Shown in pieces: positions 4,527-19,599 of a stretch of 19,599 nt of DNA; the stretch's first letter is position 1; the number at the start of each line of letters is the position of its first letter. A model generated the notes under the pieces. The model ran no database searches. It worked only from the letters and a program-made list of their open reading frames with translations, and had not been told where the DNA came from. A program made the position numbers and the translations under genes. The DNA is from a virus (taxonomy: Duplodnaviria > Heunggongvirae > Uroviricota > Caudoviricetes), in IMG/VR virus record IMGVR_UViG_2617270964_000006, positions 1-19,599 of that record. One strand, given 5' to 3'.

Positions 4527-4545
4527 GGCGGGCATGATGCCCGCC
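4527..4545 (-). other. perfect 9-bp palindrome/hairpin in the N-M intergenic spacer
   Basis: GGCGGGCAT-G-ATGCCCGCC; no U-tract on the transcribed strand, so more likely an RNA processing/stability element or pause site than a terminator. Confidence 0.35.
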
Positions 4546-4554
4546 GTGAGTTGA

Positions 4555-5607
4555 TTAGCTGTCGGCGAACTTCAGGCCAGTGATCATCGCGCACTTGCCA
4601 TAGTCTTCAACGACATAAGCGTCATTGATGGACTGGTAGGTGGCGATGCGGTTGTATTCCGGCTCGTCTTTCATCAGGCGACGCATTGAACCTTTCTGCC
4701 AGTAAATCGACAGGTTGTTGAACGAGGTGATAAGCATCGTTGCATCCGGGAAGAACGGCGCAAGGAACACGCCCAGCCCGCCAATGGTGCGCGATGACAG
4801 GATGAGCTGCCCGGCAAGTAATTCCGCATTGGGATTCTGGCCGCTGATGCTGTTCAGCACGGGCAGACGCAGCGAGTTAAACAGGTTGCGCCCCATAATC
4901 ACCGCGAGGTCGTCAGCTTCCTTGTGCCATTCATCCAGCAGGGATGAGCGCGCATCCTGTACCAGAGCATCGGCATTCGCATACTTACCCACGTGCGCCA
5001 CAGTGTTGTCCATGTTGCGGGAGGTCAGCGTCACGTCATTCATTACGCGCTCGCTGGCATCGGTTCTGATGTGCTCCAGCCAGCCCACGTTAACGTCCTG
5101 AAGCAGCTTGTTGGTGTGAAAATCAGACTCGTAGGCGTGGGATGTGCCGTTAAAGCCAATCATGATGCGATCAAGCGCTACCTGCCGGGCGATCTGTGTA
5201 CTGATACGGGACTGAAAATCGCTGTGGGCCGCCCAGGTATCAAGCTGTGGGTACGAAATAAAGGTATCGTAGTTCACCTGTTCGCACTGGTACTGACGAG
5301 ACTTCATATCGATCACGTTATTCGGGTTACGGCGTTTGATGCCGTCATAACTGCTATTCGTGCGCGCAATTGGCCCGGTGGTGTCCAGGAGGATTTTTTC
5401 GCCTTTCTGGTCGGTCACGCCGATCACGTTAATTCTTTTCGTAAATTCGGTACTTTCCTTTGAGGCGTTTTCAAAACGCTGCTGCACCGCGGGTTCCACG
5501 GTAAATCGCGATACCAGTGCAGATACCGGGATATTGTTAAGCGACGCCTGCTGCGCCATATAGCAACCCAGCTTGTTGCGGGTAATATCTGACATCACCA
5601 GATTCAT
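4555..5607 (-). CDS. N: P2 gpN-like major capsid protein
   Basis: 350 aa; ATG with AAGGAG RBS; size and position (after scaffold O) match the P2 head module. Confidence 0.9.
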   Translation of the reverse strand: MNLVMSDITRNKLGCYMAQQASLNNIPVSALVSRFTVEPAVQQRFENASKESTEFTKRINVIGVTDQKGEKILLDTTGPIARTNSSYDGIKRRNPNNVIDMKSRQYQCEQVNYDTFISYPQLDTWAAHSDFQSRISTQIARQVALDRIMIGFNGTSHAYESDFHTNKLLQDVNVGWLEHIRTDASERVMNDVTLTSRNMDNTVAHVGKYANADALVQDARSSLLDEWHKEADDLAVIMGRNLFNSLRLPVLNSISGQNPNAELLAGQLILSSRTIGGLGVFLAPFFPDATMLITSFNNLSIYWQKGSMRRLMKDEPEYNRIATYQSINDAYVVEDYGKCAMITGLKFADS

Positions 5608-5630: not shown

Positions 5631-6467
5631 TCAGAAGTCAGCCAGCTGGTCGGAGGCTGCGCCCGTTGCGGTGAAGCGGTTCTGCGGATCGCCGTCCTGC
5701 GTGCGCAGTTTTTCCTTCAATGCTGTCAGCTCTGTGGTCAGTGACGTGATTTTCTGGCGGTCCTGCTGATGGCGGGTTTCCAGCACATTAAAACGGTCGA
5801 TAATGTCGGCCTGTGACGTTGCAACGCCTTCCACCGCTTCCTGAATTCGGGAGAAACTGGCGTCATCCGCTTTGCGGCCACGACCAATAATCCCCATTAC
5901 GCGGTTAAACCACTGGGTGCCTTCTTCCTGGCGTTGTTCTGCCATTTCGATGATTTCAGACTCGATGGCTTCGGAGATAAGCGGTGCTTCACCCTGGATA
6001 CTGTTGAACGTCATCACCGCCTGACGTTGCTGTGCCGTGAATTTCAGGCGCTCAGTGCCCAGGCTTGCCGGGGTGTCGGTCATCGCCAGCCCGACCAGAT
6101 AGGCGCGCCCGTTAACGGAGAACTGCGGGTGCAGTTCGATACTGGAATAGATTTTCTTGCCGTCCGCGACAAGCTGCTTCATGCGTTCGGTAGGTTCGAT
6201 TTCTGCATACAGCGCAGTACGTCCGGCCAGCGGACCTTCCGTAATGTCTTCCGTACTCAGTGCGGTGACATCGCCCATTGCGGAAAATTCGCTTGACGGG
6301 CATGGCGAGAGATAGTGCTCAACGTTCACACGGGCAGCGTAAACATCCGGGTTGAAGTTCTCGGCGGCTTCACGCAGATGCACCGGGCTGATTTCGCGGC
6401 CATCAACAGTTGATCCGGAGACAGCCACGCGAAACTTTTTGCGGGATGTCTTTTTTTCATTAGCCAT
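5631..6467 (-). CDS. O: P2 gpO-like capsid scaffolding protein
   Basis: Start at ATG 6467 (GAGGGG RBS) gives MANEKKTSRKKFRVAVSGSTVDGREI..., recalled as matching the P2 gpO N-terminus. The track start at 6500 has no SD. Confidence 0.85.
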   Translation of the reverse strand: MANEKKTSRKKFRVAVSGSTVDGREISPVHLREAAENFNPDVYAARVNVEHYLSPCPSSEFSAMGDVTALSTEDITEGPLAGRTALYAEIEPTERMKQLVADGKKIYSSIELHPQFSVNGRAYLVGLAMTDTPASLGTERLKFTAQQRQAVMTFNSIQGEAPLISEAIESEIIEMAEQRQEEGTQWFNRVMGIIGRGRKADDASFSRIQEAVEGVATSQADIIDRFNVLETRHQQDRQKITSLTTELTALKEKLRTQDGDPQNRFTATGAASDQLADF

Positions 6468-9419: not shown

Positions 9420-9436
9420 TGGGGCTGTCCTTTTTA
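9402..9436. terminator. bidirectional intrinsic terminator between Q and the convergent 174-aa gene
   Basis: Stem ACAGCCCC (9408-9415) / GGGGCTGT (9421-9428), loop GTGAT, flanked by an A-run on one side and TTTTT on the other, so a U-tract follows the stem on either strand. Confidence 0.6.
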
Positions 9437-9958
9437 CCAGAGTTGAACCATTTTCTGGGTGCCGTCAGGCTTGAGATTATCAATTTCAGAGAGAACGTAA
9501 TATTGAATGGCTTCACAAACGGTGGTGTAGGGTGAATTACCTTCTTTAAGTGGCACGATATTATTATTAACGCGAACCTGTATTTCATCGTTATACATTG
9601 CGATCGAAACAGGAGTGTGCACGAACGCGACTTCGCCAGGTGTGTCGTCAACCACCGTTTCAATACTAAAAGTCAGTTTTCGCTCATCATTGCTGCCCCG
9701 TGCTTTGGGGGTAGCGGCAGGGATCTGGGATAAAGGCATTCTGCGAAATCCTTCGGCTGCTTCCAGTCCGCATGAAACGTAATGCTGGCGATTACCGTCG
9801 CTATCTGTCCAGGTCTGTGATGGCAGCTCCAGCGAGATTTCATAAGCATCAACAATGCCCTGGGCAAGGCGCACAAGCGGGGTCAGATCTTCATTGCGGC
9901 GAAAGCTCTCCTTTACCTGCTCCCGTTTTTCTCTTAACTGCTTGTAATTAATGACCAT
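9434..9958 (-). CDS. hypothetical protein (174 aa), orphan cargo gene next to the portal gene
   Basis: ATG at 9958 preceded by GGAGG 9 nt upstream; MVINYKQLREKREQVKESFRR...; no motif I recognise; composition visibly more AT-rich than the flanking structural genes. Confidence 0.6.
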   Translation of the reverse strand: MVINYKQLREKREQVKESFRRNEDLTPLVRLAQGIVDAYEISLELPSQTWTDSDGNRQHYVSCGLEAAEGFRRMPLSQIPAATPKARGSNDERKLTFSIETVVDDTPGEVAFVHTPVSIAMYNDEIQVRVNNNIVPLKEGNSPYTTVCEAIQYYVLSEIDNLKPDGTQKMVQLW

Positions 9959-10057
9959 AAGACAGCCTCCATTGATTTCTTTGCTCGTATTTTGCACTTA
10001 TGAAGTATGGTCGGCAAGGTGCCGTATCGCTGACGCGCTTCGCTTGTCTGCTGCTTC

Positions 10058-10086
10058 GCCGGGGCATAAAAAATTTATGCCCCGGC
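10058..10086. repeat. perfect 13-bp inverted repeat with 3-nt spacer
   Basis: GCCGGGGCATAAA-aaa-TTTATGCCCCGGC; no U-tract on either side, so a protein-binding palindrome or structural element rather than a terminator. Confidence 0.5.
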
Positions 10087-10385
10087 TCTCCAGCTCCTGT
10101 ATCAATCAGATAATTTCACGACGCCTTCCAGTTTATCGCCACCATCGACGGTCAGACTCTTACGCAATTCCACCGCGTTGACTGTATGTTCTCGCTGCCT
10201 CAGTGCGATTTTGACGGCCTTACCTTTCACCCCATCAAATCAAAAGCCCTCACGCCTTTTTCATGCTCAGCGTGAGAAATATGGCCATTCTGTTGTGTCT
10301 CTGCGACATCGTTCAGGGAATGCTATTTACCCCCTGAAACGCGGGCTGTTCCCCCGTCACCTGCGCGCAGAAAAAATGCGTTTTT

Positions 10386-10491
10386 TTGTGCACGCACGGA
10401 TCCTTGACGGATCCAGCCACCATGCGGGCTGGAAGGGTAAAAAGTCGTTCAAAAAAATTGTGCAAATTTGTGCACAATTGTGCATTGCGCA
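10386..10491. repeat. array of TTGTGCA heptamers with embedded palindromes
   Basis: TTGTGCA at 10386, 10458, 10468, 10478 (last three phased at exactly 10 bp); the latter two lie in the perfect palindrome TGCACAATTGTGCA (10471-10484); also GGATCC-TTGAC-GGATCC (10398-10414). Confidence 0.5.
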
Positions 10492-10507
10492 CTTGTTATA
10501 AATAAAC

Positions 10508-10532
10508 AAAAAAAGAGCCGCTATTGCGGCTC
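10508..10532 (-). terminator. intrinsic terminator of the HTH-peptidase/PIN operon
   Basis: Stem GAGCCGC / GCGGCTC, loop TATT; on the minus strand followed by TTTTTTT; about 35 nt downstream of the PIN stop. Confidence 0.65.
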
Positions 10533-10565
10533 AATATAATCCAATATGGCAAGAGAGATTTGGAT

Positions 10566-11084
10566 TCATTCGAAACTGGCAAGAATCTGTTCTCGAACAG
10601 AAGATTTCATCGTTAACCCACGATCTAGGAAAAATTGGAAATGCATTAAGGCTTGTTGTTTGTGGATAAGTCTCCTGTGCACAGCCTCTTGAAGTAGCCC
10701 TCCGTGGCGGGCGGCTTTTACACCGCGTTCCGCACACGTTTTATAAACCGCATTATCCGCCGAAAGACATGTTGCATCATGTATTCTCGCGTTAACAACG
10801 CAGCTTATGTCCGCATACTTCAATGCTCTCCTGCGATTTTTTATCTCAGCCATTTCAATAAAATGTTCAGGTTCGTAATCATTGGTGAAATTGTATGGAA
10901 GTTGCAGGCGTGTAAGCTGTTCCTGAACATCAAGATTGTATTTAGCTTTTAGTTCCTCGCAGACATAGGGGTCAATCCACACACCACCCGGGTAAATTTG
11001 CCAGATAAGATCTAAGCATTTACCTTCGTAAAAATCAGACAGTACATTCGTATCGATAACACATCTGGGGCATTCAAACGGCAT
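10566..11084 (-). CDS. PIN-like nuclease domain protein (candidate toxin/effector)
   Basis: ATG at 11084 with AGGAGG RBS, overlapping the upstream gene's end by 11 nt. MPFECPRCVIDTNVLSDFYEG... has the PIN strand-1 motif (V-I-D-T-N-V-L) and further acidic residues (CEEL, YADIS, IHDAT). About 172 aa. Confidence 0.6.
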   Translation of the reverse strand: MPFECPRCVIDTNVLSDFYEGKCLDLIWQIYPGGVWIDPYVCEELKAKYNLDVQEQLTRLQLPYNFTNDYEPEHFIEMAEIKNRRRALKYADISCVVNARIHDATCLSADNAVYKTCAERGVKAARHGGLLQEAVHRRLIHKQQALMHFQFFLDRGLTMKSSVREQILASFE

Positions 11085-12219
11085 CCTCTCCGGCCTCCTG
11101 TTCGTCGTACCATTCATCCAGAAGATTGCTGAGAGCTTTTCTGTCTAATTCTAAAAGTTCAGATATGAAGGTTTCCGACGCGGAACCGGCTTCCCATGCT
11201 TTACGCGATAAGACGGTTAGGCGGCCTTTATAATTTAGTGCTTCCCTAATGGGATTTGGCTCGTGTCTCTTCCAACCTTTACGATTGGCGGTTGCCCATA
11301 GGTATCTAGTGTTTTGTTGATTAATTAAATTACATTTACTAAGACGATCGATGATGCAAGTGGCTGATACTCTGAAAATGCTTTTTAGTCTAAGGACGGT
11401 TTCCTCATACGCCCATCCACCACCTTGCATGACGAATTGTTTTCGCAATGCGCTTTCTGGTACCAAAAAACAAGCAGCAAAGTGATTAGCAACTTTTTCT
11501 TCCGGTGAAATTGCTTTGCCATTGGTTTTATAGCTTTTAGCAGGGCCATCATACTCATCACGGTGGAAGATAAGATGAGCATATTCATGGCAAATACTGA
11601 AGATTTGACGTTCTATTGAAATGCTATCGTGAACATTTACATAAATCGCGGTACCGTATTTGTTCGAAAACGCAGAAAATCCGAATACCATCCCTTTATC
11701 AGTTTCTTCGCGATTGAACGGGATTACTCGAATATCCGATGCTTCCAAAATGGCTACAATGTCACCAACGCAAGTAGCGTTTCCTATACCAAGACGGAAA
11801 CGTTCTTCCATAGCCTTATCTTCGACTCTTCGCAAATCTTCTGCTTTGGCGGTAAAAATAGGCATTGAGTTAGGAAGATCTTCTGGCAAATTAGCATCTG
11901 CAGCTTCCTCAATTGCATTGATATTTTTTAACTTTTCAATCAACTCATTGCGAAGTTTGGCATCCAACAAATCCGGACTATCTGCTCGCATTGCAAAACG
12001 AAACTCGCCATCATCTTGCTCATAAAAATACCCGATAGGCTTATCGAAAATCTTGCAGAGCATGATGAGTTGGGTAACGCTTGGGACGCCTAGCGCCTGC
12101 TCAAACTTACTGTAGGTTTGACGAACAACACCGATCGCATCTGCGACGGCGCTTGCACTCATTCCTGCGTCGTTTCTGGCCTGAACCAAGCGTTCTGCTA
12201 TACGCTGTTGAATGTTCAT
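11074..12219 (-). CDS. XRE-family HTH fused to ImmA/IrrE-type (M78, COG2856) zinc metallopeptidase
   Basis: 381 aa; N-terminal HTH (RIAERLVQARNDAGMSASAVADAIGVVRQTYSKFEQ); HEXXH zinc site in SICHEYAHLIFH; AGGTGA RBS; AT-rich coding sequence. Confidence 0.85.
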   Translation of the reverse strand: MNIQQRIAERLVQARNDAGMSASAVADAIGVVRQTYSKFEQALGVPSVTQLIMLCKIFDKPIGYFYEQDDGEFRFAMRADSPDLLDAKLRNELIEKLKNINAIEEAADANLPEDLPNSMPIFTAKAEDLRRVEDKAMEERFRLGIGNATCVGDIVAILEASDIRVIPFNREETDKGMVFGFSAFSNKYGTAIYVNVHDSISIERQIFSICHEYAHLIFHRDEYDGPAKSYKTNGKAISPEEKVANHFAACFLVPESALRKQFVMQGGGWAYEETVLRLKSIFRVSATCIIDRLSKCNLINQQNTRYLWATANRKGWKRHEPNPIREALNYKGRLTVLSRKAWEAGSASETFISELLELDRKALSNLLDEWYDEQEAGEDAV

Positions 12220-12583: not shown

Positions 12584-12693
12584 TTTACGGGATTCTGAAA
12601 TCCCGTTTTCGCCTGTTTTGCGCGCGCTTCATATATCGCGGCGCGTTTTTTGCTCATTTACGGGATTTGTGAATCCCGTTTCTGTCTGTTTTT
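12584..12693. repeat. duplicated ~37-bp hairpin elements at the 3' end of gene A
   Basis: Copy 1 12584-12619 TTTACGGGATTCTGAAATCCCGTTTTCGCCTGTTTT; copy 2 12657-12693 TTTACGGGATTTGTGAATCCCGTTTCTGTCTGTTTTT (overlaps the last A codons); between them a GC-clamped AT-core hairpin followed by TTTTTT. Confidence 0.5.
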
Positions 12694-15450
12694 GTTTCCA
12701 CTGGTCAGGACACCCCGCAGCAGGTCTGCTTTGCGGCGGGCGCGTTCAGTGGTTTCACTGATTCTCTGTGCGTGCTCTGCGTCACGGATGGCGCGCAGCA
12801 TGTCAGAAAGCACGGTAACGGGAGTTTTCATGGTGTTCTGGTCCTGCTGAATTGTGGATGCCAGGCGTGCAGCGGCTTCAGGGTCTGATGCCCCGAGCTG
12901 TTTCAGATAGCTGGAAATCGGGTTATGGCGGATTTCCGTGCTGTTTACGCCGTGATTACGGCTCAGGCGCTGCCAGAGCTGCGTGATTCGGCTGTCCGGT
13001 CGGGTATCTGGTTTGCGTACAATTTCAAATCCCTGCGGTGCAATGATGCTGCCGTCAACGTACAGACTGCCGCCTCGTAACAGGTGCTGCATCTGCTGTT
13101 CACCGATATGCAGGCCGAGAGATTCGGCAGATTCCCGCCATTCTTTAGCGAGTAATTCGTGGTTATCAGGCAAAGGCCGCTGATGTTTGCGGCTCTGTGT
13201 CCAGCTCTGCATTTCATCGCTGCTGTTTTTTGTCTGTTTGTCACGAAGCGAACGCATCAGCGCCCGGCGTTCGTGTCGTTTCAGTGAGCGCATCCATTCG
13301 TTCACTTCAACGCCGTCAGGGAGCTGCGGCCACGGTGCTGGCCGTTCTTCCGGCTGTTCTGTCCCGTTGTTGTCCGTTTCCTGTACACGGGGACAGTTAT
13401 TGCCACGAGTCCAAGGGGCGGCAGGGCCGCCCTGAAGGTCAAAACCATTTTCGCGGGAGCTATCTTCCGCTTCCGGTTTGCGTCTTACCAGCTTCCAGTT
13501 ATCCGGATGCGTGCATACGCGGGAAGACTCCCCGATGAGCGGCGACCAGATCCCGTAAATCTGTACACTCTGCTCACCGTAATCGTTCAGTTCATCTGCG
13601 AGGTCGTAGGCGGTGCGAATCAGGTAGTCTTTGCGTGGAACAAGCACGCCACCCTGTTTTTCAATGTAGGTGGCAAAACACCCGGCATCAGCGGCAGCGA
13701 GTACCGCATCCATTGCGTCATCCTTCAGCCGTTGCGGGCCTTCCGGGTTGCGTGCCATCTGGCTGGCAAGGCGGCGCAGTTCACGCCACACCTGACGGGA
13801 GGGGATACCAAAGAACTGGAACTGGCGGATTCGGTGAAGGCGCGCCCAGCCGATGGCGCGTTCCACGCTCTCGGCCATTGATTTTCCGGTTTCGTGGTCA
13901 ACGCGTGGCTTGCCCGTTTTCGGGTCGATGCCATCCACGGCGCGGCTGTCCAGGTTCTTTCCGATGTAGGTGGCGATGTAGCTGGTTGGCGTGCCTTTTG
14001 AGCCGTCGACGTACTCCGCCTTAAAACGCGGAGTTATGTCATCGCCCAGCTCGTGGCGGTCTTCCTGAATGGCAATATCGCAGACGTGGGACACGATGGT
14101 TTCAATCTCGTCCGGATGTGCAAAGACCATCATATGCCAGTGCACAGTGCCGTCATGGTGAGGCTCCACCGTGCGGATGCCATACCAGCGCAGACCGTCG
14201 CGGTTCAGTTTTTTGCGGACCGCCGCAAAAAACGTGTTAACCAGATAATCGCTGGAGTCGCGCATGGTGGCCCCGTTCCATTTGGGGTTCGGATGACCGT
14301 TCTCTGTTGTAGCGTGGTATTTTGACGGGCAGGTGACAGTCAGAAACACCGCTCTGTCGCCACGGGCTTCGGCCAGAAGTTCCAGCCCCTTCATGGTGGC
14401 CATCATTTCTGCCTTACGGTGAACCGGGTTACTTACTCCCGCGTAATACACTGTCTCGAGATCAATCGTGAACCCGTCTTCGTTTTCCAGCATGAAACTT
14501 TTCAGGAAATCGCGTGTTTTCTCGCGCTGTGCGCGAAACTCGCTTAACGCGTCCTGGCTCAGATAGGGCGATGTTTTTCTGGAAACCAGACAGGCGGCGC
14601 GGAGTTGTTCTTCTCTCCACTCGCAACGTAACAGCCACAGTTTGCGTTTCCACCATTCCGCACAGGTCAGGCGAAGGATTGCGCCCGGCAGCAGTTCTGT
14701 GTCCGGTTCGTTCCTCCGGTCTTTGTCTGTTGTCAGTGCGTCATAATGCGGAGGCATGGCGTGCAAGTGTAACGCCATGCGGGCCAGCATCTGATACGCC
14801 TTCAGCGTTACATCCATGGTCAGCTCGCCATCAGTCGCGCCAAAACCATCGCAGAGTTTTTCGAAGGTGCTGCTGAACATCGCCGCCGTCATGGTGGCCA
14901 GCGTCTGTATCTGGTGTTTGTTGAGTTGCGGCAGGGAAAGCAAATCGTCCAGGCGTTCACGTCCGGCAAGGGACCGATAACCCGGTGTCAGCCAACGGCT
15001 GTCGGTGCGGTCCAGACGTACGAATATTTTGCGCAGGGTTCCGCGTGCATAGCGTTCCGCCTGCCAGCTCTTTTTGCCTTTCCGGCGATCGGCTTCCTGT
15101 TTTTTGCGCAGGAAGGAGAGGTGGCGAATAAGCGGATCGCGCAGATAGGACGGCAGCAGGCGCAGCGAGGCCATGGCTTCATCCACCGCGCCACGTGCCT
15201 GTTTTCTGGCTTCTCTGGCCAGTGTGATGGTTTTGTCCTGTTTTTCCTGTGCGTCCAGGCTTTTATTAATCAGGTTGCCCAGCGGCGTGGCGGAGAACGC
15301 CGCATCAGCCATTTCCTGGCGGCGCTCGTTCTCTGCCCGGTAGGCATCCAGCCAGGAGGAAAGCTCGGATTCAGGAGCGGGGATTCCCGTTCCTTCACGA
15401 CCCACTGCGTGGCGCGGTTGTTGCCAGTCCCTGATGTACTCTGCCGTCAT
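12658..15450 (-). CDS. A: P2 gpA-like rolling-circle replication initiator (HUH endonuclease)
   Basis: 930 aa; HUH motif in VEPHHDGTVHWHMMVF; convergent with Q across the cargo locus, as in P2. Longer than the ~760 aa I recall for P2 A, implying an extra C-terminal region. Confidence 0.9.
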   Translation of the reverse strand: MTAEYIRDWQQPRHAVGREGTGIPAPESELSSWLDAYRAENERRQEMADAAFSATPLGNLINKSLDAQEKQDKTITLAREARKQARGAVDEAMASLRLLPSYLRDPLIRHLSFLRKKQEADRRKGKKSWQAERYARGTLRKIFVRLDRTDSRWLTPGYRSLAGRERLDDLLSLPQLNKHQIQTLATMTAAMFSSTFEKLCDGFGATDGELTMDVTLKAYQMLARMALHLHAMPPHYDALTTDKDRRNEPDTELLPGAILRLTCAEWWKRKLWLLRCEWREEQLRAACLVSRKTSPYLSQDALSEFRAQREKTRDFLKSFMLENEDGFTIDLETVYYAGVSNPVHRKAEMMATMKGLELLAEARGDRAVFLTVTCPSKYHATTENGHPNPKWNGATMRDSSDYLVNTFFAAVRKKLNRDGLRWYGIRTVEPHHDGTVHWHMMVFAHPDEIETIVSHVCDIAIQEDRHELGDDITPRFKAEYVDGSKGTPTSYIATYIGKNLDSRAVDGIDPKTGKPRVDHETGKSMAESVERAIGWARLHRIRQFQFFGIPSRQVWRELRRLASQMARNPEGPQRLKDDAMDAVLAAADAGCFATYIEKQGGVLVPRKDYLIRTAYDLADELNDYGEQSVQIYGIWSPLIGESSRVCTHPDNWKLVRRKPEAEDSSRENGFDLQGGPAAPWTRGNNCPRVQETDNNGTEQPEERPAPWPQLPDGVEVNEWMRSLKRHERRALMRSLRDKQTKNSSDEMQSWTQSRKHQRPLPDNHELLAKEWRESAESLGLHIGEQQMQHLLRGGSLYVDGSIIAPQGFEIVRKPDTRPDSRITQLWQRLSRNHGVNSTEIRHNPISSYLKQLGASDPEAAARLASTIQQDQNTMKTPVTVLSDMLRAIRDAEHAQRISETTERARRKADLLRGVLTSGNKNRQKRDSQIP

Positions 15451-15456
15451 AGTGAT

Positions 15457-15822
15457 TTACTTCGTCATGCCATTCAGGGTGTCGCGGCAGACTGTAGCCA
15501 GCCGCTGAATTTCCAGCACGGTGTCTTCTGTGTCGGCATGGCGATGTGTGATGCGGATGCTGTCGGCAATCACATCGACGATTGCAGAGGATGGGCGCTG
15601 GTAAATGCCAATAACGGACGGGGTGCCACCTTCAATGCGGTAAAGCCTGTAATTTTCCTCATGGCTGTCAATCATGTAGCGACCATCAATAACAATCTTT
15701 CCGTCAGCGAGCTGCGGTACAGGCAGGGATTTCAGGTACATGTCATAACGATCACGCACGCGAGCGGCAAGATCACGTTCTGTGTTGAGCAGGTATTCAA
15801 GAAAGTCGTTGGCGAGAATCAT
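15457..15822 (-). CDS. hypothetical early-operon protein (121 aa)
   Basis: ATG with AGAGGA RBS; ends 6 nt before the A start. Confidence 0.55.
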   Translation of the reverse strand: MILANDFLEYLLNTERDLAARVRDRYDMYLKSLPVPQLADGKIVIDGRYMIDSHEENYRLYRIEGGTPSVIGIYQRPSSAIVDVIADSIRITHRHADTEDTVLEIQRLATVCRDTLNGMTK

Positions 15823-15894
15823 TGCGGCAATCCTCTTGCTACAGATGTGCGAAGGCCTCCCGCCGCAAGGTGCAGGAAAGGCCTGGAACAGGAA

Positions 15895-16125
15895 TTAATG
15901 GAGTTTGTTTTGCTGCTGGATGAGCTGCTGAAGCTCGCGCAGATCATCCGCCAGATAGCTGAAAACAGAGGCGGAATAAATGTTTGATAGTGCGTGGCTG
16001 CGCTCATGCAGCATATTGATGTGCATGATTTGCGCGACGCGTGATGCGCGGAAAAGTCTGCGGTTGATTTCAGTCTGGATGTGACGACGCTCCGCGATAG
16101 CGCGGTGCTGTTTGCGGTTTGCCAT
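15895..16125 (-). CDS. hypothetical early-operon protein (76 aa, basic N-terminus)
   Basis: ATG with AGAGAGG RBS; MANRKQHRAIAERRHIQTEINRR...; no recognisable motif. Confidence 0.5.
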   Translation of the reverse strand: MANRKQHRAIAERRHIQTEINRRLFRASRVAQIMHINMLHERSHALSNIYSASVFSYLADDLRELQQLIQQQNKLH

Positions 16126-16302
16126 GATGTGGCCTCTCTGTTAGTTAGTTTTGAAAACTCACCATCCAGAGGTTCCAAGCTCGGGGTGGTGAGACGTACA
16201 GGGTTGGAACTACCGGCTAACAGAGGACCCGGCCCAGCTGATGCTGGCCCTGTACGCCCCACCATAATTCTGACGCGAAAAAGACGTGGCGATACGGCAC
16301 GC

Positions 16303-16325
16303 ACAAAAAAACCGCTGGCGCGGTT
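16303..16325 (-). terminator. intrinsic terminator-like hairpin
   Basis: AACCGC-TGGC-GCGGTT (16310-16325); on the minus strand followed by TTTTTTT (16309-16303). Confidence 0.45.
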
Positions 16326-16443
16326 GTGCGCTCTGTTAGTCTGCGGGGTTCCAATCCCGGCACCCGTTTTATGAGGTGCAGCGGAAATGTAACCTGACTG
16401 ATTGCGGCATGGCAAGCGGTTTTTTTGTGAGAACGGCATACTA

Positions 16444-16486
16444 AAAAATCCTGATACTGCTCCGGCCAGCGGTTTTCACTGGCCGG
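16444..16486 (-). terminator. hairpin downstream of the SPFH gene stop
   Basis: CCGGCCAG (16462-16469) / CTGGCCGG (16479-16486) with 9-nt loop; T-run (16449-16444) 12 nt further on the minus strand. Confidence 0.4.
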
Positions 16487-16492
16487 GTTTAA

Positions 16493-17323
16493 TTACTTCA
16501 CCGGAACAAACGGAACAGCGGTGTTACTGGTCATGTATTGCGGTAGCGTGCCGTTCCATTTGTTAATCGCTTCCAGCTCCATAACGCCGGGATTCTGGCG
16601 CAGAGCTTCACCGCGTAAACGAATGGCGTCGGCTTCAGCCTGGGCTTTTGTGCGAATGGCATCGGCTTGTCCGGCAGCTTCTGCGCGCAGCATGTTGGCT
16701 TCAGCTTCGCGTTGCTTGACTTCCTGTTCACGTTGCAGGGTTTTCTGGTTTGCCGTGACTTTGGCATTAATGCTGTCGATAACGGTTGGCGGGTATTCCG
16801 GCTTACCCACATAAGAGAGGCTCATTACCTGAATGCCGATAGGTGTCATTTCTGCCTGAATGTCTTTAAGTGCTGAATCCAGCAGTTCAGACTTGCCACC
16901 GTCGATAAATTTATCGGTGGTCATTTTGCTGGCCAGTCGGTTGAGTGCGTCGGCGATCTTCTGGCGCAGGTCAGTGTCGGTAATGTCATCCACGCCTTTG
17001 CGGTAGGTCTGAAACACTATAGTAACTTTGGATGGATCAACCTTGTAGGCCACACCGATGTGATAGCCGATGGTTGTGCCGTCACTCATCTGAAAGCTGA
17101 ACGGCTCATTGTAGGTCTTCATTTGTTTGAAGGTCGGGAAGATGTAAACCTCGGTATTCCAGCCAGTCCAGTAGCGGCCAACGCCAACCACTTCGCCAAC
17201 GCCTTTGTCGTCGCCCAGCTTGTTGACTTTGATGCCCACATTACCTGGCTCAACGCGATCGCAGCCAACCAGCAGGATGGCGGCAAAAAGCGGGAGAATC
17301 TGAAAGAGTTTGAATTTCTTCAT
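16493..17323 (-). CDS. SPFH/band-7 (prohibitin/stomatin-like) lipoprotein
   Basis: 276 aa; signal peptide with lipobox LLVGCD; C-terminal A/E/R-rich coiled coil (QREQEVKQREAEANMLRAEAAGQADAIRTKAQAEADAIRLRGEAL); AAGGAAA RBS; start overlaps the upstream gene's stop (ATGA). Confidence 0.8.
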   Translation of the reverse strand: MKKFKLFQILPLFAAILLVGCDRVEPGNVGIKVNKLGDDKGVGEVVGVGRYWTGWNTEVYIFPTFKQMKTYNEPFSFQMSDGTTIGYHIGVAYKVDPSKVTIVFQTYRKGVDDITDTDLRQKIADALNRLASKMTTDKFIDGGKSELLDSALKDIQAEMTPIGIQVMSLSYVGKPEYPPTVIDSINAKVTANQKTLQREQEVKQREAEANMLRAEAAGQADAIRTKAQAEADAIRLRGEALRQNPGVMELEAINKWNGTLPQYMTSNTAVPFVPVK

Positions 17324-17523
17324 TGTTTAATTTCCTTGATGTACTTACTGAAAAGGCGAACAACGCCTGCCGGGTACAGCATGGCAATGAAAATGCCCAG
17401 CAATACCAGGAAAGAGCTGTCTGATGAAATCATTCGGGGGAGTACCCCTACATACAGAATGAGAGAGACGAGGACGCATACCAGCGCCCATGCATATGCA
17501 CGAAACCATGTCTTGTTGTTCAT
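17320..17523 (-). CDS. small membrane protein (67 aa, two predicted TM helices), partner of the SPFH gene
   Basis: ATG at 17523; WFRAYAWALVCVLVSLILYVGVL and FLVLLGIFIAMLYPAGVV hydrophobic segments; translationally coupled to the SPFH gene. The track's longer N-terminus is basic, low-complexity. Confidence 0.55.
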   Translation of the reverse strand: MNNKTWFRAYAWALVCVLVSLILYVGVLPRMISSDSSFLVLLGIFIAMLYPAGVVRLFSKYIKEIKQ

Positions 17524-17533
17524 GTTGCGGCCC

Positions 17534-17746
17534 TTACTGGTTAAGGAAAAAATCGAAAACCTTGTCAATGCGTTGCAGCAGCTCTTGCTGTATTGCTTCC
17601 GGCGTTTCCGGTTCGCCTGGCGCCTCCAACGTCGCGCAGAAATCAGCGATTTCATGATGGAGTGTCAGGCGAATGGCAGGGGCCGTGGTTCTGGCGTGCT
17701 CCAACTCATCCAGCAGTGCCAACACCACTGACGGTTGTAAGCTCAC
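17534..17746 (-). CDS. hypothetical acidic protein (70 aa)
   Basis: ORF-track call; GTG start with no clear SD; ends 11 nt before the small membrane protein gene. Confidence 0.3.
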   Translation of the reverse strand: MSLQPSVVLALLDELEHARTTAPAIRLTLHHEIADFCATLEAPGEPETPEAIQQELLQRIDKVFDFFLNQ

Positions 17747-17825
17747 GCGAGATGGTAGTGATTCATGGGGGGTATTCTTTGCACGGCAGTCGCCAGTTCG
17801 CGTAGTTCCTGGTGGTTGATGATGC

Positions 17826-18077
17826 TCATGCTCTGGCTTCCTTCAGTAACTGGTTAAACATATTGGTAAGTGGATTGCCGCACCCGAACGGCATCGGGTT
17901 TACCTGGTAAGAGAAGCGACCACCTGTTTTGCGCTCTTTTCTTATGACTGAACCGCTACGCCAGAGTCGGCGTAACTCCGCATTAATAGCTGTGGTTGGG
18001 GTATTCAGTGCTGCGGCGATTTCTCCACCGCTACACCCCGGATTGGCGGCGATATAGTCCAGAATGGTCATCTGCAT
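17826..18077 (-). CDS. small winged-helix-like DNA-binding protein (83 aa)
   Basis: ATG with CAGGAG RBS; ILDYIAANPGCSGGEIAAALNTPTTAINAELRRLWRSGSVIRKER resembles a wHTH recognition region. Confidence 0.5.
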   Translation of the reverse strand: MQMTILDYIAANPGCSGGEIAAALNTPTTAINAELRRLWRSGSVIRKERKTGGRFSYQVNPMPFGCGNPLTNMFNQLLKEARA

Positions 18078-18271
18078 GACTCCTGTACCTGTCGGATAAG
18101 GTTCACCCGCACCACGTTGGTGGCGCAGAAGTAAGTGCCGTCAGTGAGGTAGATGTGGTGAGCATCCTTTTCTGAACGGTGTTTGTCGATTGTGGTAATC
18201 AGGCGTTCGTCGACTTCGTATTCACGTCCTCTGGAGGTAAAACGAACGACAGGAAAGTGCTTAATTGCCAT
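18068..18271 (-). CDS. hypothetical early-operon protein (67 aa)
   Basis: ATG at 18271 overlaps the upstream gene's stop by 11 nt; the longer track start would overlap by 71 nt. Confidence 0.45.
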   Translation of the reverse strand: MAIKHFPVVRFTSRGREYEVDERLITTIDKHRSEKDAHHIYLTDGTYFCATNVVRVNLIRQVQESCR

Positions 18272-18578
18272 TGCGCCCACTGTTCTGTTTCTGGCGACGG
18301 ATGCGGGATAGCTGGATTTCCAGCTCTTCAATGTGGTCGTGCAACTCGTCTATTTCGGCGAAAAGCGAATCAAGGGTTGATGAGAGTTCCGTTAACAGGG
18401 CCTTTGCCGCCAGTGCAACAGTAAACGTGCCGATGTCGCGTTCCGGGTCAATTTCACTAACAAGTGTTCTGGTTAGTTCAAGAGCGACGGGTAGCGCCTC
18501 TTCCAGTTTGCAATCCTGGAGATGAGCAAGAATAGTTAATGCGTCGCATTGAATTTTGTCTTCTTTATTTTGTTTCAT
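18261..18578 (-). CDS. hypothetical early-operon protein (105 aa, acidic/helical)
   Basis: ATG start with an AAGGCGG SD-like sequence; no recognisable motif. Confidence 0.5.
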   Translation of the reverse strand: MKQNKEDKIQCDALTILAHLQDCKLEEALPVALELTRTLVSEIDPERDIGTFTVALAAKALLTELSSTLDSLFAEIDELHDHIEELEIQLSRIRRQKQNSGRNGN

Positions 18579-18668
18579 CGTTGCCGCCTTATTTGAATGT
18601 ACAAAGCCCTCCGCGAGTGCGGATTGTTTTCATGTTTTCTTATTTAATCGTGTGTTTTATTTGTGCTG

Positions 18669-18782
18669 TTATTCTTCAGTGAAAAAACGCTCAATCTTTT
18701 TTACTGAATGAATAATTCGCACAATGCCAATTGCGCAGACCACTGAAATAATCAGAACAATCCATGACATAAATATACTCAT
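18669..18782 (-). CDS. small hydrophobic peptide (37 aa), not in the ORF track
   Basis: ATG 18782..18780 overlaps the stop of the 80-aa gene (ATGA); MSIFMSWIVLIISVVCAIGIVRIIHSVKKIERFFTEE = one TM helix plus charged tail. Confidence 0.35.
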   Translation of the reverse strand: MSIFMSWIVLIISVVCAIGIVRIIHSVKKIERFFTEE

Positions 18783-19021
18783 GCGATATTCCCCAGCTTA
18801 TACGGTTCAATATGTTCTCCGCATTCTGCGGCACAGATCAGCTCGGAAAGTTCGTTAAGTGCATCCAGATCATCAGCGTAAAAAGCCACGTCATACAGAC
18901 TCCGGATTGCCCTGGTCAATGAGTCACGGGCTGCACGTTCAGCATGAACGCCTGATGCGCTTAAGCGAAAATAAAAACGCTCAAGTGCTTTGTTGATGAG
19001 TGTTTTATATTCTTTGTCCAT
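18779..19021 (-). CDS. hypothetical early-operon protein (80 aa)
   Basis: ATG with AAAGGGTG RBS; no recognisable motif. Confidence 0.5.
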   Translation of the reverse strand: MDKEYKTLINKALERFYFRLSASGVHAERAARDSLTRAIRSLYDVAFYADDLDALNELSELICAAECGEHIEPYKLGNIA

Positions 19022-19032
19022 TGCAACACCCT

Positions 19033-19265
19033 TTAATCTGCTTTCTGGATTTCAGCTTCTGAATCCATGCAAATAATTTCGATATAGGGTTCATTGCCAT
19101 TAACCTGACGTGCCTTTTCAGCTTCGCTAATGATTTCGCGTACAGTCTGGTACGGAAGTTCTACGGTCAGGCGCGTGCCGTTCAGATAAACGTAAGTAGC
19201 TGCATTTTTTTCTGATGGGACGACGCCATCAGTAGCTGATGCGCGTAATAACAGTTCACCGCGAA
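19033..19265 (-). pseudogene. C-terminal 77 codons of an early-operon gene truncated at the IS1 boundary
   Basis: Open minus-strand frame running from the IS1 end at 19265/19266 to TAA at 19035..19033 (...LRGELLLRASATDGVVPSEKNAATYVYLNGTRLTVELPYQTVREIISEAEKARQVNGNEPYIEIICMDSEAEIQKAD); no start codon on this side of the IS. Confidence 0.5.
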
Positions 19266-19599
19266 GGTAATGACTCCAACTTATTGATAGTGTTTTATGT
19301 TCAGATAATGCCCGATGACTTTGTCATGCAGCTCCACCGATTTTGAGAACGACAGCGACTTCCGTCCCAGCCGTGCCAGGTGCTGCCTCAGATTCAGGTT
19401 ATGCCGCTCAATTCGCTGCGTATATCGCTTGCTGATTACGTGCAGCTTTCCCTTCAGGCGGGATTCATACAGCGGCCAGCCATCCGTCATCCATATCACC
19501 ACGTCAAAGGGTGACAGCAGGCTCATAAGACGCCCCAGCGTCGCCATAGTGCGTTCACCGAATACGTGCGCAACAACCGTCTTCCGGAGCCTGTCATAC
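19266..19599 (-). mobile_element. IS1 insertion sequence, partial (terminal inverted repeat at 19266; continues past the window end)
   Basis: Begins GGTAATGACTCCAACTTATTGATAGTGTTTTATGTTCAGATAATGCCCGATGAC, which I recognise as an IS1 end; followed by the insB coding sequence. Confidence 0.9.
19281..19599 (-). CDS. insB: IS1 transposase InsB (C-terminal part; 5' end beyond the window)
   Basis: Translation ...[88 protein letters not shown] matches IS1 InsB as I recall it. Confidence 0.85.

Follow-up and report, generated by a model that had tools for sequence, protein, structure and literature searches.

The right end of the DNA studied here lies inside an IS1 element that adjoins the early genes of a P2-type prophage, which raises the question of whether IS1 has interrupted a gene of the early operon and what such an interruption would mean for the prophage and its cargo. 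The window, understood as the whole stretch of DNA analysed (19,599 bp), corresponds to the entire draft contig JHDG01000102.1 from assembly GCA_000601135.1 of Escherichia coli 1-176-05_S3_C1. A sibling colony of that stool sample, 1-176-05_S3_C2, has been treated as Escherichia ruysiae ST5792 (PMC10434276), so that the contig may come from a host other than E. coli sensu stricto. The window covers part of a P88-type prophage of the P2 family (Xuanwuvirus, Peduoviridae), in which the order from left to right is NanS-like esterase gene (truncated by the contig end), lysis genes, head genes, cargo, replication gene A and small early genes (Table 1). Repeated DNA was found at both contig ends: the left one lies in the conserved 3′ part of the NanS-like esterase gene, and the right one 334 nt into IS1. 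The two ends are assembly breaks, not biological boundaries.

Table 1. Features of the 19,599-bp window, numbered from its first nucleotide
Feature	Position	Strand	Remarks
NanS-like putative sialate O-acetylesterase gene	3-1667	minus	DUF1737, SASA, DUF6645; between lysis and tail genes
Head genes X, L, M, N, O		minus	
P and Q		plus	
Cargo region	9.4-12.3 kb		
PIN-domain protein gene	10566-11117	minus	DUF3368 (precomputed Pfam match); overlaps RmrA-like gene
RmrA-like protein gene	11074-12219	minus	381 aa; HTH_3 + Peptidase_M78; matches PADLOC RmrA models
Replication endonuclease gene A	12658-15450	minus	930 aa; Phage_GPA, PF05840 match
Early genes downstream of the insertion	15457-19021	minus	collinear with MS8345 and P88; DUF4754, 37-aa ORF, 105-aa ORF, 67-aa ORF, winged-HTH protein, frameshifted Ead/Ea22-like ORF, 67-aa ORF, SPFH/Band_7 protein, Ash/derepression region, 121-aa ORF
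Ash-domain ORF	15819-16439	minus	206 aa; overlaps the 76-aa ORF in another frame
76-aa ORF	15895-16125	minus	'derepression protein' (PF25738, P4 epsilon-like)
Terminator-like hairpin and T run	16325-16310	minus	in the early operon, upstream of A
Promoter-like match (pattern scan)	16415-16386	minus	weak; upstream of A
SPFH/Band_7 protein gene	16493-17323	minus	276 aa; in the early operon; P88 counterpart annotated as lipoprotein
Ead/Ea22-like early ORF	17534-17829	minus	frameshifted; 98 aa in relatives
3′ remnant of the P88 gp05-like early gene	19033-19265	minus	codons 16-92 and stop
A7 tract	~19206-19212		many broken gp05-like forms switch frame near it
String of small early genes	up to 19265	minus	
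CACCGCGAA, predicted copy of the 9-bp IS1 target	19257-19265		predicted from the usual 9-bp IS1 duplication
IS1 right terminal inverted repeat (IRR), GGTAATGACTCCAACTTATTGAT	19266-19288		exact 23/23
IS1 (IS1A family), right-hand 334 nt	19266-19599	minus	99.7% alignment and PF03400 match
Called 88-aa ORF	19281-19547	minus	C-terminal InsB′; PF03400, DDE_Tnp_IS1

The IS1 junction and the interrupted gene

Alignment of the window with the complete 768-bp IS1A-family element of strain p4A revealed a base-for-base correspondence over the 334 nt up to the contig end (positions 1-334 to 1-334, 99.7%). The IRR is located at the extreme end of the element and is the same as that of the p4A copy. The insA gene is outside the contig, and the assignment to IS1 comes from the 23-bp repeat, the 99.7% alignment and the DDE_Tnp_IS1 transposase. 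The direction of the transposase genes (insA to insB′) is the minus strand, which is also the direction of the phage early operon. On the phage side, the similarity to uninterrupted prophages ends exactly at 19265, the exact right terminus of IS1 being joined to nucleotide 47 of a gene similar to gp05 of phage P88. A join placed so precisely at the end of IS1 is a junction of the transposition type and neither a chance nor a chimeric one.

The remnant of the gp05-like gene amounts to 233 nt of a 279-nt gene (92 aa). Its last 77 codons are kept, up to the TAA at 19033-19035, but it lacks its first 46 nt together with the start codon and the ribosome-binding site. Strain MS8345 (99.7% DNA identity over 666 nt) and phage P88 both have an intact copy. 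An 83-aa protein that begins at an ATA inside IS1 is given for this position in the public record; it is not credible, since the sole canonical in-frame start in the remnant is an ATG situated 11 codons before the stop. The gp05-like gene belongs to phrog_3800, a narrow enterobacterial family of unknown function, and no Pfam family was matched by its product. The AlphaFold model of this protein was good (mean pLDDT 85), and its comparison with PDB structures gave no match at E ≤ 0.001 (best 0.048), with TM scores below 0.5.

The position of this gene in the operon was deduced from P88 and MS8345, where the order is int, C, cox, DUF4761, gp05-like, DUF4754 ... A, with the genes from cox onward divergent from int and C, and cox through A co-directional. 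The gp05-like gene thus occupies the third place in the early operon and precedes A, and the segment from its remnant to A in the window is collinear with both relatives, Pe and cox lying outside the window. P2-type early operons are read from the promoter Pe, which is repressed by C, and have cox as their first gene (PMC3936717). The first-pass annotation had described an IS1 terminal repeat abutting a frame devoid of its 5′ part, had assigned that frame to the early operon, and had situated IS1 between the early promoter and the downstream early genes, including A. These three points were borne out: the IRR at 19266 adjoins a remnant without its first 46 nt, the gene order and common direction in P88 and MS8345 identify the truncated frame as an early-operon gene, and the same operon order leaves a nearly intact A separated by IS1 from the expected Pe.

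Age of the event and state of the rest of the prophage

Several observations bear on the age of the insertion. The junction-spanning 83-aa ORF was present only on JHDG01000102.1 among all gene positions on record, and the exact A protein of the window was also restricted to one contig. None of 5,426 complete E. coli genomes carried this junction, the sole genome with IS1 in the gene being p4A, at a different position. In addition, the exact phage-IS1 junction 35-mer had no match among the GTDB representative genomes, a collection that the source assembly is outside of. Finally, the 4 kb beside the junction showed about nine differing positions with regard to MS8345. The confinement of the junction ORF and of the A allele to one contig, the lack of a complete genome sharing the junction, and a flank ~99.8% identical to that of an intact relative suggest, from sequence comparison, that the junction is a recent private accident and not an old domesticated state.

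Two additional private differences were found in the early region, both of them deletions of one nucleotide in homopolymers, which may represent early decay or sequencing error. The first one (G7 to G6 at ~17767) frameshifts the Ead/Ea22-like ORF, and a longer run was observed in 15 of the 15 complete genomes covering the segment. The second one (T6 to T5 at ~12693) leaves A with 8 residues in place of its final 18 (930 vs 940 aa); the full-length A matches listed, among 389 records, carry the longer T run. In the 9.4 kb of late genes, no indels were detected in comparison with MS8345, and all ORFs have the expected length.

As to the cargo, a terminator-like hairpin follows the RmrA-like/PIN pair, and the 381-aa RmrA-like protein is identical to an allele present on at least 1,000 contigs. 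The cargo hotspot (9434-12219), located between the portal gene Q and A, also holds a 187-aa ORF of unknown function. The first-pass annotation had proposed a domesticated or defective prophage with intact accessory cassettes. The statement on the cassettes is right for the RmrA-like/PIN pair, which is whole, and not for the NanS-like esterase gene, from which the left contig end removes the last 214 nt. The term domesticated had to be abandoned, as the lesion found at the junction is confined to a single assembly and is not a lineage-wide inherited one, with the junction ORF and the A allele on a single contig and the junction in 0 of the 5,426 complete genomes.

Expected effect on the early operon and competing explanations

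A recent simple insertion of IS1, polar on the early operon, is in our opinion a reasonably probable explanation of the locus. In such an insertion, the other end of IS1 would be followed, on another contig, by the 55 nt that begin the gene (46 nt and the 9-bp duplication) and by DUF4761, cox, Pe, C and int. The insertion would also repeat CACCGCGAA at the junction with the left inverted repeat (IRL). On the plus strand, this other junction would be read as IS1 ...GGCAGCATCACC, then CACCGCGAA, then AATCAATAAAACGG, and the left end of IS1 would be joined to the phage as ...AGTTGGCAGCATCACC + CACCGCGAA + AATCAATAAAACGGATAAATACACC.

Strong polarity in either orientation is a classical property of IS1, whose own promoter is weak and subject to auto-repression. 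A scan of the full IS1 in the direction of the operon revealed no intrinsic terminator, and therefore any block exerted by the element would be Rho-dependent polarity. Transcripts from Pe entering IS1 would lose translational coupling and would be stopped by Rho within the element. After derepression, Cox would still be made, whereas the ~11 downstream early genes and the cis-acting A would not be expressed. On the basis of textbook IS1 polarity, the insertion probably blocks phage replication and leaves the prophage crippled. No particles would be produced by the prophage alone, because P2-type late transcription depends on replication and would not start. The genes for C (immunity), Cox and Int are upstream of IS1 and would be unaffected. 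Since the lysis and structural genes are intact, as is the RmrA-like/PIN cargo, immunity and the cargo functions would be kept, and possibly also the capacity to act as helper for P4-like satellites. This helper capacity could survive because P4-type satellites switch on the late genes of the helper without helper replication. It has to be noted that the crippled state is something that we infer, since a prophage of defective appearance can nevertheless undergo induction and packaging (PMC2669165).

The loss of the gp05-like product seems to be of minor weight. Broken forms (truncated, frameshifted or fused) make up 74 of the 108 protein clusters of its family, and about 15 such forms were found among the 120 clusters of the neighbour DUF4761. 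Since frameshifts in the gene are frequent among other prophages, its product is probably dispensable, and this frequent natural breakage indicates that polarity, rather than product loss, is likely what matters.

An IS at a contig end reveals only half of the event, and IS1 could instead be the edge of an adjacent deletion, or of an inversion between IS1 copies. In that case the promoter-proximal end of the prophage, comprising the 5′ part of the gene, DUF4761, cox, Pe, C, int and the attachment site, would have been lost or moved, and the remnant, lacking both immunity and excision functions, would be locked in. Such IS-driven deletions and inversions are common, IS1 is numerous in E. coli (the complete-genome search gave a median of 10 matching sites per genome), the junction ORF is unique, and a single IS1 junction is visible in a contig that stops inside the element. 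We nevertheless consider this origin unlikely: rearrangements are far rarer than simple insertions, the IS1 of p4A, a comparable event, entered by simple insertion with a 9-bp duplication, and the window shows no sign that the other side was lost. A search for the partner junction through the DUF4761 protein located the MS8345 allele on 8 contigs, with none from GCA_000601135.1 among the two matches listed.

We give somewhat less credit to a real insertion without crippling, in which read-through, the IS1 promoter or an internal promoter would supply enough A, and only a dispensable gene would be lost. The only promoter-like site in the full IS1 in the operon direction is the element's own promoter in IRL, which drives the transposase and faces the downstream early genes, so that it could provide some repressor-independent transcription of them. 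The frequent breakage of the interrupted gene in other prophages and the weak promoter-like match upstream of A are also consistent with such an outcome, as is the activity of prophages that seem defective (PMC2669165). However, the pattern scan for sigma-70-like promoters between the junction and A gave 3 sites vs 4.5 expected by chance, and no hybrid promoter formed by IS1 and its flank was above chance at the junction. Furthermore, the established polarity of IS1 in both orientations, together with the weakness and auto-repression of its promoter, argues against a sufficient supply of A.

The recurrence of IS1 in this gene was also considered. In p4A (NZ_CP049085.2), a complete IS1 (4543-5310 of the examined locus) is inserted into the homologous gene with the orientation seen in the window, flanked by the 9-bp duplication CGGAAGTTC and with the remaining prophage on both sides, and illustrates the form that a simple insertion takes here; the insertion point of this copy corresponds to codon 53, vs nt 46/47 in the gene of the window. 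The metagenome contig ERZ27295894 k141_332 (6001-6299 of the examined locus) also carries IS1 in the homologous gene, and it ends in IS1. The insertions of p4A and k141_332 share the 9-mer GAACTTCCG and differ in orientation and in IS1 isoform. Altogether, there are at least three independent IS1 insertions in the gp05-like gene (window, p4A and k141_332), and GAACTTCCG may be a local IS1 hot spot. These events, along with the broken state of about two thirds of the protein clusters, mostly around the A7 tract, are the basis for a further reading, which we regard as doubtful: that the gp05-like gene is a preferred site for the silencing of P88-like prophages, the gene or read-through of the early operon being costly to the lysogen and its breakage selected instead of neutral. 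The recurrent breakage is a small lead on expendable or costly early genes of P2-family prophages.

A chimeric contig end, for which the draft short-contig assembly and the repeated sequences at both ends might speak, is scarcely credible and was rejected, since the last nucleotide of the IS1 inverted repeat is exactly where the join falls, in the manner of transposition, and the same contig is listed for two samples.

With a simple polar insertion as the preferred explanation, the P88-like prophage of this isolate would be scored as probably replication-defective, still immune and still endowed with the RmrA-like/PIN cassette, and P4-like satellites might still be able to use it as a helper. 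The event is of an ordinary and already known kind, an IS1 insertion in a well-known prophage type, and its significance goes little beyond annotation.

Comparison with known systems

Phage P88 (NC_026014) and the MS8345 prophage resemble the prophage of the window in the early order cox, DUF4761, gp05-like, DUF4754 ... A, and the DNA identity between the window and the MS8345 prophage is 98-99.8% outside the cargo region. On the other hand, gp05 is intact in both relatives and truncated in the window, and the place between portal and A is occupied by ParM/ParR-like cargo in P88 and MS8345, whereas the window has the RmrA-like/PIN pair.

At the level of the insertion, the IS1 of p4A (IS1A family) is alike in its identical 23-bp IRR, in the 334 nt at 99.7%, in the homologous gene and in the orientation. 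It differs in its site, codon 53 instead of nt 46/47, and in that both of its ends were seen, compared with one visible end in the window. The classical polar insertions of IS1 in gal and lac provide the precedent for the expected effect, as IS1 in a promoter-proximal gene is expected to abolish distal expression through Rho. The likeness resides in the promoter-proximal position within a polycistronic operon.

Finally, the IS-disrupted prophages of E. coli O157 Sakai are similar in that they combine IS insertions and frameshifts with the retention of accessory genes (PMC2669165). The lesions of the Sakai prophages are multiple and lineage-wide (PMC2669165), whereas the IS1 junction described here is private to one assembly and the visible structural genes are intact.
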